A DNA stretch of 64,000 nt, from positions 2,475,729 to 2,539,728 of the forward strand of contig OZ242020.1 of NCBI GenBank assembly GCA_965204875.1, written 5' to 3'. A program made the translations under genes and the position numbers. Below, piece by piece: positions 9,232 through 15,705 of this stretch (positions within the stretch are counted from its first letter, which is position 1; every line of letters starts with the position of its first letter). This stretch comes from Candidatus Aldehydirespirator sp. (lineage in GTDB: Bacteria; Actinomycetota; Acidimicrobiia; Acidimicrobiales; Aldehydirespiratoraceae). A model generated the notes under the pieces. That model was not told where the DNA came from. It worked only from the letters and a program-made list of their open reading frames with translations, and did not search any database.

Positions 9232-11613
<2,382 letters not shown>

Positions 11614-12132
11614 CTAGCGGGCCGCCCTGCCTGCGGGACCGGCCGGCACCGGAGACTCGCCGCCGCTGTTGTCCCCGGCCGTCGCATGAGCGCCGACGGT
11701 GTCGGCGGGCGCGCCCAGGCAGTCGGGGCAGTGACCCCAGTAGATGACCTCGGCCTCGTCGATAGTAAAGCCGAAGTCGTCGTCGACGTCCAGGCACGGC
11801 CGGTACCCGGCGGCGCAATCGACGTCGACCATGCGGCCGCAGGCGCGGCAGACCAGATGGTGGTGGTTGTCGTCGACCCGGTCCTCGTAGCGCGCCGCCG
11901 AGCGCGCCGGCTGGATGCGCCGGATCAGGCCCTTCTCTGACAGCACGGCCAGGGCGTCGAACACCGCCTGCCGGGACACCGCCCCGATGGCGGCACGGAC
12001 GTCGTTGGCGAGATCGTCGGCCGTGGCGTGCGGTCGGGCCGACACGGCCCTCAACACAGCCAGCCGCTGAGCCGTCACCTGGATCTCGTGTGCCCTCAAC
12101 TTCTGCTCGAGCCGCCCGGCGTCCTTGGCCAT
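11614..12132 (-). CDS. furA: Fur-family peroxide-responsive regulator
   Basis: [10 protein letters not shown]...CPDC metal sites and a winged-helix N-terminus. It sits immediately upstream of katG, as in mycobacterial furA-katG. Confidence 0.85.
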
Positions 12133-12138
12133 GCAGCC

Positions 12139-12177
12139 ACCATAGCACTATTCTGGATCAAATCAACAATTTGATTT
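12139..12177 (-). promoter_or_regulatory. Candidate leaderless furA promoter (-10 TATGGT) with AT-rich inverted repeat (possible FurA box)
   Basis: On the minus strand: AAATCAA-ATTG-TTGATTT (12177..12160), then TATGGT (12144..12139), 6 nt, then ATG (12132). This is the only AT-rich patch for several kb. It overlaps the selD stop codon. Confidence 0.4.
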
Positions 12178-13230
12178 TGTCTGGCTCCAGTTCGGTTCAC
12201 GCCTCAGGCGGATGCGGCCGGAGCCCTCGGTTGCCCGGCCGATCAGCGCGGCGTCATGCCCTGAGAGCCTCAACTCGGTGACAGCGGCCATGGCGGCCTC
12301 GGGGCTCACCATTCCCAGCAGCAGGCCGCCGGACGTCTGGGCGTCGGCCAGCAGGGTGACGGTCAGCTCGCCGGCGTCGCCGCTGTCGAGGTGCGGTGTC
12401 ACCCAGTCGAGGTTGCGCCCGGTTCCACCTGGCACGAAGCCGAGCGACGCCAGCTCGCGCGCACCCTCGATCACAGGCAGGTCGCGGGTGAAGAACTCCA
12501 GGTCGACGCCGGACTCCTGAGCCATGCGCAGGCCGTGGCCCAGCAGCCCGAAACCCGTCACGTCGGTGGCGGCGGTGGCGCCGTGGCGCAGGCCGGCGCC
12601 GGTCGCGGCCGCGTTGCTGCGGGTCATCTCGCCCACGGCTCGCTCGACCACGTCCGGGTGTGCCTCGCCCGCTTTGACGGCGGTCGTGATCACGCCCATG
12701 CCCAGGGGCTTGGTGAGCACCAGGGCGTTGCCGGGGTGCAGGCCGGCGTTGGTGAGCATGCGCGACGGGTCCACCTCGCCCAGCACAGCCATGCCGTACT
12801 TCGGCTCGGGATCGTCGACGGTATGGCCGCCACCGACCACGAAACCGCAGGCCCGGGCCGTGTCCTGCCCGCCGGCGAGCACCTCGGCCAGCAGGTCGCC
12901 GGGCAGTTCGGTGGAGTTCCACGCCACCAGGTTGAGCGCCAGCAGCGGCCGCCCGCCCATGGCGTACACGTCCGACACCGCGTTGGTGGCCGCCACCCTG
13001 CCCCAGGTGCGCGCATCGTCCACGACGGGGGTGATGAAGTCCGCGGTGAGCACCAGGGCACGCCCAGGGCCTATGCGCCACACGGCCGCGTCGTCGCCGG
13101 TGGAGTGGCCCACAAGCAACTCGGGCGGGGCATCGCCGGTGAGGCCGCGCACCACGTGCGCGAGCTCGCTAGGAGCGAGCTTGCAGCCTCAACCCGCGCC
13201 GTGGCTGAACTCGGTCAACCTTCTAGGCAT
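12163..13230 (-). CDS. selD: Selenide, water dikinase with in-frame UGA (selenocysteine at codon 14)
   Basis: ATG at 13230 gives MPRRLTEFSHGAG-UGA-GCKLAPSELAHVVRGL..., continuous with the 330-aa ORF of the track. The UGA (13191..13189) falls on the catalytic Cys/Sec of the SelD GAG(C/U)GCK motif. Hairpins follow the UGA. Confidence 0.85.
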
Positions 13231-13296
13231 CGCACTCACCCCCTCACGTCTCACGCTCCGGCTGAAGCCCCCGCAGGATAGGCACCCCCCGAAGCC

Positions 13297-14421
13297 GTGG
13301 CCGGGACGGCTCTGCTGCGACGGGCGCCGGATGCCCTGCGGGAGCGCCGGTATGGTGCTGCGGTGAGCGTTGATCCGCGCCTTGTCACCAGGGCCGGCGA
13401 GCTGTTCGGTGTGGACTACCCGATCGTGCAGACCGGCATGGGCTGGGTGGCCGGCCCGTCGCTGGTCGCCGGTGCCGCCGAGGCCGGAGCGCTCGGGATA
13501 CTCGCCTCGGCCACCATGACCCTCGACGAGATGGAAGCGGCCATCGCCGAGGTCAAATCCCGCACGGGCCGGCCCTTCGGCGTCAACCTGCGCCCCGACG
13601 CCGCCGACCTGGCTGATCGCGCCGACCGGCTGGTGAGCGCCGGGGTGCGGGTGGCCAGCTTCGCCGGACCCCCGGCCGCTCGGGTCGTGGCGCGGCTGCA
13701 GGAGGGCGGGGTGCTGGTGATGCCGACGGTGGGCGCCCGCCGCCACGCTCAGAAGATGGCCGAGCTCGGGGTGGATGCGGTGCTCTGCCAGGGCGCCGAG
13801 GGTGGCGGACACACCGGCAACATCCCCACGTCACTGCTGCTGCCGCAGGTGCTCGACGCGGTGGACGTCCCGGTGATCGCCGCCGGCGGGTTCCACGACG
13901 GTCGTGGCCTGGCCGCAGCGCTCGCCTGGGGGGCTGACGGCGTGGCCATGGGCACCCGGTTCCTGCTCACGGCCGACTCCAGGGTGCCCGACGCGGTGAA
14001 GTCCGTCTACCTCGCCACACCCGTGACCGGCACTGTGGTGTCGAGCCGGATCGACGGCAAGCCGCAGCGAGTGATCCGCACCGATCTCGTCGACTCGCTC
14101 GAATCGGCGGGCATCACCCGGCTCGCTCGGGCCGCTCTGAACGCTTGGCGCTTCCGCCGCCTCACAGGCACGAATGTTGCGGCCCTGTTGCGCGAGGGCC
14201 TGGCCATGAAGCGCAGCCAGGGACTCACCTGGAGCCAGACGGCGATGGCCGCCAACGCGCCGATGCTCACTAGAGCGACCATGGTTCTCGGTGACATCGA
14301 AGCCGGCATCCTGCCCACCGGCCAGTGCGTGGGCGTCGTGGACGACCTTCCGACCTGCGCGGAGCTCATCGACCGGATCGTGTCCGAGGCTGTCGCCGCA
14401 CTCGACCGCCTCAAGCCGTAG
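13297..14421 (+). CDS. Nitronate monooxygenase / FabK-like enoyl reductase family flavoprotein
   Basis: FGVDYPIVQTGMGWVAGPSLVAGAAEAGALGILA and the GAEGGGHTG motif. The start is uncertain (13297, or GTG 13363). Confidence 0.8.
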   Translation: MAGTALLRRAPDALRERRYGAAVSVDPRLVTRAGELFGVDYPIVQTGMGWVAGPSLVAGAAEAGALGILASATMTLDEMEAAIAEVKSRTGRPFGVNLRPDAADLADRADRLVSAGVRVASFAGPPAARVVARLQEGGVLVMPTVGARRHAQKMAELGVDAVLCQGAEGGGHTGNIPTSLLLPQVLDAVDVPVIAAGGFHDGRGLAAALAWGADGVAMGTRFLLTADSRVPDAVKSVYLATPVTGTVVSSRIDGKPQRVIRTDLVDSLESAGITRLARAALNAWRFRRLTGTNVAALLREGLAMKRSQGLTWSQTAMAANAPMLTRATMVLGDIEAGILPTGQCVGVVDDLPTCAELIDRIVSEAVAALDRLKP

Positions 14422-14496
14422 CGGCGCTCGCACCGCGCTCGTCGCCGACCTGCTCGCCTGGTTGGCGTCTCGCGTGTTGGTCGTGCTCGCCTATAG

Positions 14497-14685
14497 TGAC
14501 CCAGGCTGTCGTGAGCGAAGCCGGTGAGATCCCGGCACTGTCCCGCAACGGTGATGCCCCCTAGGGGGACGAGTCCGGTCGCCTCGCGTCCGCTGCATCG
14601 ATCCGATCCTCGAGGAAGGAGCGGCTCGTGCGGTGGGTCCTCCCGCTGCTCGGCGCTGAACTCGAGCAGAAGGGAGCAAACCCTG
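14497..14685 (+). promoter_or_regulatory. Cobalamin (B12) riboswitch leader
   Basis: Core GAAGCCGGTGAGAUCCCGGCACUGUCCCGCAACGGUGA (14517..14554), then a small hairpin CCCCCUAGGGGG and the B12-box-like GAGUCCGGUCGCCUCGC (14571..14587). A -10-like TATAGT lies at 14492..14497. A hairpin CUGCUCG-N10-CGAGCAG abuts the SD of the downstream gene. Confidence 0.75.
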
Positions 14686-15705
14686 ATGACCGACACCGCA
14701 ACACGGCGAGCCTCGCGACGGCGAACCTCGCGGCTACTCAAGCTGCTTGCACTCTTGCTCATTCCTGTGCTCGTTGCCGCTGCCTGCGGCGGCTCGGACG
14801 CCGAGGACGCCCGAGAGGAAGTAACGCCTGCCGCAGCGGCGCCCGCCAACGCTGCGGAGAGCGAGCACACCGTCGCTCCGGCCGACGCTGGGGATACCAA
14901 CCGCGCAGCGGCATCCGCCGGCACTGACGCTGCCCAGCGGATCGTGTCGATATCTCCGACAGGCACCGAGATGCTCTTCGCCATCGGTGCGGGCGATCGG
15001 GTCGTTGCTGTCGACCGGTTCTCCTACTTTCCCGAGGAAGCGCCGGTCACCGAACTGGACGGCTGGAACCCCAACATCGAGGCGATCGCCTCATACGAAC
15101 CCGACCTGGTGGTGCTGCAAACCAACGGCGACGTCATCGCCGCTCTCGAGGCGCTCGGCATAGCGGTGTTCGCACACGACGCCCCCGTCACCTTCGAGGA
15201 GGTGTACGCCCAGATCGAGCGACTCGGTGGCGTTACCGGCCACGACGATGGGGCCTCCAGGCTCGCCGCAGGCATGCGCTCCCGGATCGCCGAGCTAATC
15301 GCCGCCGCGCCCGACTCGCCGGGTCTCACCTACTATCACGAGCTCGACGACACCCTTTACAGCGTCACCGGCAGCACCTTCGTCGGGCAGGTCTACGCGC
15401 TGTTCGGCCTGGTCAACATCGCCGATCCCGCTGACGCCGACGGCAGCGCCTGGGGCTACCCGCAGCTGAGCGACGAGTACATAGTGGACGCCGACCCCGA
15501 CGTGATCTTCCTGGCCGACACGCTGTGTTGCGGCCAGAGCGCAGAGACGGTCGCCGAGCGCCCCGGCTGGGATCAGCTCAGCGCGGTGCAGGCAGGTCGC
15601 GTGGTCGAGCTCAATGACGACATCGCCTCGCGCTGGGGGCCTCGCCTCTTGGACTTCATCGCGTCCATCTCCGAGGTGGTCGCGTCCATCGGTGCCGCGG
15701 CTTAG
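14686..15705 (+). CDS. Cobalamin/siderophore-type ABC substrate-binding lipoprotein (BtuF-like)
   Basis: ATG 14686 follows SD AAGGGAG. The signal plus lipobox is LLALLLIPVLVAAAC, followed by a periplasmic binding protein fold type 2 pattern. It lies downstream of the B12 riboswitch. Confidence 0.8.
   Translation: MTDTATRRASRRRTSRLLKLLALLLIPVLVAAACGGSDAEDAREEVTPAAAAPANAAESEHTVAPADAGDTNRAAASAGTDAAQRIVSISPTGTEMLFAIGAGDRVVAVDRFSYFPEEAPVTELDGWNPNIEAIASYEPDLVVLQTNGDVIAALEALGIAVFAHDAPVTFEEVYAQIERLGGVTGHDDGASRLAAGMRSRIAELIAAAPDSPGLTYYHELDDTLYSVTGSTFVGQVYALFGLVNIADPADADGSAWGYPQLSDEYIVDADPDVIFLADTLCCGQSAETVAERPGWDQLSAVQAGRVVELNDDIASRWGPRLLDFIASISEVVASIGAAA

Follow-up and report, generated by a model that had tools for sequence, protein, structure and literature searches.

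The question raised by this locus is whether the TGA that interrupts a selD-like reading frame in the genome of Candidatus Aldehydirespirator sp. is a stop codon, an error or a codon for selenocysteine (Sec). The window, by which we mean the whole stretch of 64,000 nucleotides that was analysed (contig OZ242020.1), belongs to an assembly of 3.08 Mb with 68% G+C. In the mechanical list of its open reading frames (ORFs), selD is seen as a 330-aa ORF on the minus strand with a GTG start (12163..13155), and a second listed ORF of 207 aa (13189..13812) has the C-terminal end ...MPRRLTEFSHGAG; both pieces are as an earlier note on this DNA had described them. The letters of the minus strand run ATG (13230..13228) CCT AGA AGG TTG ACC GAG TTC AGC CAC GGC and continue GCG GGT TGA (13191..13189) GGC TGC AAG CTC. 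When this TGA is read as U, the stretch 13230..12163 gives MPRRLTEFSHGAG-U-GCKLAPSELAHVVRGL..., one protein of 355 residues in which U is residue 14 and the motif around it reads SHGAG-U-GCK. The complete coding sequence (12163..13230, minus strand) then comprises 355 codons, with the putative Sec codon among them, and a TGA stop at 12165..12163. We hold it to be highly probable, from the comparative evidence given below, that the locus is a Sec-type selD in an Acidimicrobiia genome, whose UGA would be decoded via SelB and a downstream hairpin.

The read-through product is homologous to SelD over its full length, as the earlier note had proposed: its scores on TIGR00476 and NF002098 are 353.9 and 332.1 bits (cut-offs 125 and 299, respectively), and AIRS and AIRS_C domains are found in it. 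Its best match in the PDB is the Cys-type SelD of E. coli, 3u0o (E = 6.5e-74), with which it is collinear at residues 4 to 331. In the phmmer alignment to 3u0o_A, residue 14 (U) lies opposite Cys17 and K17 lies opposite Lys20, which puts the UGA at the catalytic Cys position, again as claimed. We take it as established biochemistry that Cys17 and Lys20 of E. coli SelD are essential residues of a glycine-rich N-terminal loop. The predicted product is a full-length selenide, water dikinase. Its start codon is the ATG at 13228..13230 (minus strand), 13 codons before the TGA; among the same-genus genomes, 22 have ATG and 2 have TTG in this same alignment column. A Shine-Dalgarno-like sequence, GAGGGGGTGA, is present at 13236..13245 (minus strand), 5 nt on the 5' side of the ATG, and the Shine-Dalgarno-like block GGGGGTGA 5' of selD is nearly invariant over 24 same-genus loci. 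The GTG at 13155, which forms the loop of the second hairpin described below, is replaced by GTC, GTT or GTA in relatives and is therefore not a conserved start; the 330-aa ORF is an artefact of the ORF finder, a truncation without the catalytic N-terminal loop.

To see how the TGA is conserved, the read-through SelD was searched against 40 related genomes. One selD was found in 24 of 25 same-genus genomes, the exception being a 73%-complete assembly, and a TGA lay inside every match. When the 5' regions are aligned, the TGA falls on one and the same codon in every one of the 24 genomes of the genus; the earlier note had named this codon in close relatives as one point to check, a TGC there being among the things that would speak against recoding. 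Close order-level homologues carry TGA in three cases out of four and TGC in one. A wider survey, taking one genome per species, yielded 73 further loci with a recognisable motif. TGA is found in 28 of these, mostly Acidimicrobiia or Acidimicrobiales metagenome-assembled genomes (MAGs), and the TGA loci from outside the Acidimicrobiia are single cases in Chloroflexota, Gemmatimonadota and one 'delta proteobacterium' MAG. TGC or TGT is found in 45, almost all of them from other Actinomycetota, with genera such as Pseudonocardia, Streptomyces, Geodermatophilus and Actinomadura. The Sec/Cys pairing that serves as a criterion for a Sec-type SelD is seen here, with UGA in the orthologues and Cys codons in homologues elsewhere.

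Two short hairpins follow the UGA in the mRNA, at the positions that the earlier note had given. Hairpin 1 (H1; 13181..13163, minus strand) is AGCUCGCU-CCU-AGCGAGCU, an 8-bp stem with a CCU loop, whose first base is the 8th nt after the UGA; its fold has an energy of -11.5 kcal/mol (z = -4.1), a stability that none of 200 shuffles attained. Hairpin 2 (H2; 13162..13146, minus strand) is (C)GCGCAC-GUG-GUGCGC(G), a 7-bp stem with a GUG loop (13155..13153), in which the GCGCAC arm begins at the 28th nt after the UGA and the fold reaches -10.5 kcal/mol (z = -2.5). The two abut, and their joint fold is at -22.2 kcal/mol (z = -3.3). Across 27 TGA-bearing sequences, about 95% of cells are paired in each hairpin, and three pairs in H1 and three in H2 show double-sided compensatory changes; those in H1 are A-U to C-G (columns 22/36), C-G to U-A (27/31) and C-G to G-C (26/32). 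The observed covariation was reached by 0 of 500 shuffles and slid controls all fall to 30-46% paired, statistics that overstate independence because the compared sequences are phylogenetically related. RNAalifold independently predicts the same two helices. Some of the compensations change the protein, L/I together with E/D and H/Q together with V/L, as in CUC...GAG (L...E) versus AUC...GAU (I...D); since several of them alter amino acids, RNA pairing is kept at the protein's cost.

The pairing also separates Sec-type from Cys-type genes. Among the further loci of the wider survey, at least 7 of the 8 H1 pairs form in 23 of 28 Sec-type loci versus 1 of 45 Cys-type loci, and at least 6 of the 7 H2 pairs form in 27 of 28 versus 3 of 45. 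The mean number of H1 pairs is 7.4 of 8 in the Sec-type loci (n = 28) versus 5.2 of 8 in the Cys-type loci (n = 45; Mann-Whitney p = 1.5e-11), and that of H2 pairs is 6.7 of 7 versus 3.2 of 7 (same loci; p = 7e-13), p values to which the same overstatement through relatedness applies. Both hairpins are largely absent from Cys-type selD homologues, and the hairpin pattern recurs in several phyla. In addition, synonymous codon entropy is 0.46 bits in the 15 codons after the UGA versus 0.87 in the rest of the gene (Mann-Whitney p = 0.001), which places the post-UGA window among the 11 lowest of 325. This synonymous-site constraint and the contrast between Sec- and Cys-type genes support RNA-level selection on the hairpins.

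Two further pairings were considered and rejected. An outer stem closing H1 and H2 (GGU.GAGGC / GCCUC ACC), which appears in the minimum free energy (MFE) fold of the single sequence, is unconserved: it has 0 double-sided changes, and its pair 11/60 is broken in 15 of 27 sequences and its pair 14/57 in 11 of 27. The earlier note had also allowed H1 to be extended by three pairs, and this part of its description was not borne out; the extension needs an A.C mismatch and uses bases of the 5' arm of H2, and its columns are invariant and so give it no covariation support.

We next consider which hairpin could be the bacterial SECIS element (bSECIS), a role for which the earlier note had put forward both. 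The consensus model has an apical loop of 3-9 nt, an upper stem of 4-16 bp, a G within the first two loop positions (usually G[G|U]), a spacing of 16-37 nt from the UGA to the apical loop and an MFE of at most -7.5 kcal/mol (PMC13188914, Fig. 2 legend). H2 agrees with it on all four counts, with its 3-nt loop and 7-bp stem, a loop that starts with GU, a spacing of 33 nt (at the long end of the range) and -10.5 kcal/mol. Its loop begins with GU in 27 of 27 aligned sequences and in 28 of 28 further Sec-type loci, an invariance confounded by coding constraint, since the G-U also opens a conserved Val codon. H1 conforms in stem and loop size (8 bp, 3 nt) and in MFE (-11.5 kcal/mol) and departs from the model in two respects: its loop is CCU or CCC, without G, and its spacing of 15 nt is 1 nt short. 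A scan of the selD 5' region against Rfam (E <= 10) returned no match to SECIS or any other family, an outcome that we regard as uninformative. Since H2 fits all the criteria and H1 fails those of loop and spacing, we assign SelB binding to H2, as the probable bSECIS hairpin, and a probable accessory role to H1; of the two candidates in the earlier note, only H2 fits the published criteria. Compared with the bSECIS of E. coli fdhF and the Zhang-Gladyshev model, H2 is alike in its small loop starting with G-U, its stem of at least 4 bp, its spacing within 16-37 nt and its MFE below -7.5 kcal/mol (PMC13188914). The selD region differs from them in having neither a bulged U nor a long lower helix; instead, a separate conserved hairpin, H1, occupies the stretch between the UGA and the SelB-type hairpin.

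Despite failing two criteria, H1 is at least as well conserved as H2. It is possible, if rather doubtful in our estimate, that the recoding signal of this selD clade is bipartite, with H1 as a distinct functional element and not a passive spacer. The idea draws on H1 being as conserved and covarying as H2 and on its occurrence in Sec-type selD genes of at least four phyla. By analogy, H1 could act like the eukaryotic Sec redefinition element (SRE), slowing the ribosome or disfavouring RF2. A link between bacterial selD SECIS elements and the SRE hairpins of eukaryotic SPS2 genes has been speculated on (PMC4561486), and a bipartite signal, if true, would lend it substance.

The earlier note had predicted that selA, selB and tRNA-Sec would be encoded elsewhere, and all three are present in the genome. 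The selA and selB genes score 363 and 274 bits, both above their cut-offs, and are neighbours at C1:1.660-1.663 Mb; at the C-terminus of SelB, the SECIS-binding winged helix SelB-wing_3 is recognised with 57 bits. The tRNA-Sec found by ARAGORN at C1:1911078-1911173 has the anticodon UCA and a length of 96 nt, and it scores 66 bits on Rfam RF01852 (cut-off 47). The selD gene is single, with no Cys paralogue, and selU, for selenouridine synthase, was looked for in the genome and not found. With the only selD and no selenouridine synthase, the enzyme would feed the pathway that is needed for its own synthesis; a dependence of Sec synthesis on a Sec enzyme, as the earlier note had it, would follow from the single selD.

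A selenoproteome was likewise predicted, and two other UGA-interrupted genes were found. One is an FdhA-like molybdopterin oxidoreductase at C1:2021620-2023572, whose motif SCNRT-U-HAPSV contains an in-frame TGA at C1:2021884. On TIGR01591 it reaches 613 bits, short of the cut-off of 666, and its UGA is followed by a 6-bp hairpin with a GGUCU loop (manual pairing), a loop that presumably resembles that of E. coli fdhF. Judging from its sequence, this is probably a Sec-containing formate dehydrogenase alpha subunit. The other is a predicted lipoprotein of the Redoxin family at C1:2987418-2988632 (plus strand), with TGA at C1:2988333 in the motif FWAPH-U-PTC, a long low-complexity Thr/Ala/Pro linker and a C-terminal Redoxin/thioredoxin-like domain. 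Some 35 homologues in the genus, frequently arranged as 2-3 tandem paralogues, retain the TGA, and the predicted protein matches a known selenoprotein type, the thiol:disulfide oxidoreductase-like one. These two were the only ones that looked real among 40 candidates from a six-frame scan for in-frame TGA, most of which were ordinary stops followed by the next gene in frame; since the scan is blind to Sec codons near the N-terminus, such as that of selD, the list of selenoproteins is a lower bound.

We propose the following scheme for the synthesis of SelD in this lineage. Translation would begin at the ATG at 13230, and the ribosome would meet the UGA (13191..13189) at codon 14, where we infer that it is decoded as Sec and not as a stop. 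The Sec-tRNA(Sec) would be brought by the elongation factor SelB, whose C-terminal winged-helix domain would tether to a hairpin of the coding-sequence mRNA just 3' of the UGA. The SelB site would most likely be H2 (13162..13146), with its 7-bp stem and G-U-N loop 33 nt after the UGA. H1 (13181..13163) is probably accessory: it could set the spacing, stack coaxially on H2, or slow the ribosome and disfavour termination. In the product, Sec would take the place of the catalytic Cys17 of E. coli SelD within the glycine-rich N-terminal loop, and this Sec-type SelD would make selenophosphate for SelA.

Other readings of the TGA need to be weighed against this scheme. It could be a real stop, in which case selD would be a pseudogene or a split gene with a truncated protein made from the GTG at 13155. 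Such a reading takes the frame as table 11 gives it, broken at the TGA, and the 330-aa ORF as the ORF finder reports it, yet all 24 congeners share the TGA at this codon, it recurs across phyla, and a pseudogene would not preserve the 13 codons before it, the start ATG or the Shine-Dalgarno-like sequence. The codon at 13155 varies among GTC, GTT and GTA in relatives, and the truncated product would be without the Sec/Cys-Lys loop that aligns to E. coli Cys17 and Lys20. Moreover, this is the sole selD of the genome, while selA, selB, selC and other UGA genes are maintained. We therefore consider a real stop very improbable. The possibility that a TGC was turned into TGA by faulty sequencing or assembly has even less to recommend it. 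Cys-type SelD, with TGC or TGT here, is common in other Actinomycetota; what decides against an error is that TGA stands at this exact codon in 24 independently assembled congeners and in dozens of other assemblies, which rules out a sequencing error, and that the hairpins co-occur with TGA and not with TGY. The comparative data already refute this explanation, and we give it practically no weight.

A different kind of alternative accepts that the UGA is read through and holds that it is not, or not only, read as Sec: a near-cognate tRNA could insert Trp or Cys, or Cys could be loaded on tRNA-Sec. In particular, Cys loading when selenium is scarce would bootstrap SelD without pre-existing selenophosphate, and in a genome whose only selD is of the Sec type, without a Cys paralogue, a selenium-independent route to a first enzyme is conceptually attractive. 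H1, which lies close to the UGA and has no loop features of the SelB type, is reminiscent of the stem-loops that stimulate read-through and have been discussed for SPS genes of eukaryotes (PMC4561486). On the other side, the complete Sec machinery and a hairpin that conforms to the model are present, a cell that inherits SelD protein at division has no need of bootstrapping, and the sequence data give no sign of non-Sec decoding. We judge this alternative improbable, and Sec insertion at the UGA remains our preferred reading.

Sec-type SelD is well documented (PMC1794560, PMC4561486, PMC13188914), and the locus is an ordinary case of a known type. SelD and FdhA are reported to be the two selenoproteins that occur most widely among bacteria (PMC1794560, PMC13188914), and every Sec-decoding organism has at least one of the two (PMC1794560). 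Sec-type SelD is the second most widespread selenoprotein family in prokaryotes. Among the SelD genes of prokaryotes, 19% code for Sec, 'always in the same position', and predicted bSECIS elements are on record for these (PMC4561486). Known examples are those of Haemophilus influenzae, Aquifex aeolicus (PDB 2yye/2zod) and Rubrobacter xylanophilus, and Rubrobacter and similar actinobacterial cases have already been listed (PMC1794560). The present gene is like these in its family, in its domain architecture, in the position of the predicted Sec within the N-terminal loop, in having the putative SECIS within the coding sequence right after the UGA and in the co-occurrence of selA, selB, selC and FdhA. 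It differs in its lineage, an uncultured-type genus of Acidimicrobiia, and, apparently, in having two abutting short hairpins and not one long stem-loop. With the Cys-type SelD of E. coli, Pseudonocardia, Streptomyces and Geodermatophilus it shares the motif SHGAG-C/U-GCK and the presumed chemistry; the Cys-type genes of E. coli and most Actinomycetes differ in having TGC or TGT in place of TGA and in largely lacking the hairpins. In one respect only is the locus slightly out of the ordinary: a conserved, non-canonical H1 separates the UGA from the SelB-type hairpin.

Since the pattern is already documented in many bacteria, the locus opens no new question, and its main value is one of annotation: standard gene calling splits or truncates selD, the FdhA-like enzyme and the UxxC redoxins throughout the genus. 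Read correctly, these genes suggest that these Acidimicrobiia use selenium and that their sole selenophosphate synthetase is itself a selenoprotein. The clean covariation of the two hairpins could also make this gene a convenient model for the role of a UGA-proximal hairpin.

Several minor observations were made in the window and in the genome. A perfect inverted repeat, ATCAAAT-N5-ATTTGAT (12157..12175), lies in an AT-rich patch and shares bases with the final codons and the stop codon of selD. A Fur-family gene (11614..12132, minus strand) has its ATG 25-43 nt downstream of the repeat and is followed by a catalase-peroxidase gene (9232..11454, minus strand); the repeat looks like a FurA/PerR-type operator for this furA-katG pair. 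An 864-aa ORF on the plus strand (9346..11940) was dismissed as a gene; it is an antisense shadow of the minus-strand catalase-peroxidase gene, of a kind typical of high-G+C genomes. Elsewhere in the genome, ARAGORN called a 90-nt tRNA-like gene with a 4-base anticodon (gatg) at C1:80551-80640 and a tRNA-Thr(ggt) at C1:240302-240391 that is unusually long at 90 nt, both of which may be false positives or tRNAs that bear an intron or insert. The Rfam scan of the whole window matched only a tRNA-Leu and, at the borderline, a cobalamin riboswitch (14465..14604, plus strand; 31.7 bits versus a gathering score of 31.5). The riboswitch match begins just upstream of an ORF for a Peripla_BP_2 substrate-binding protein (14524..15705) and extends across its called start, and the two together would fit a B12 uptake gene.
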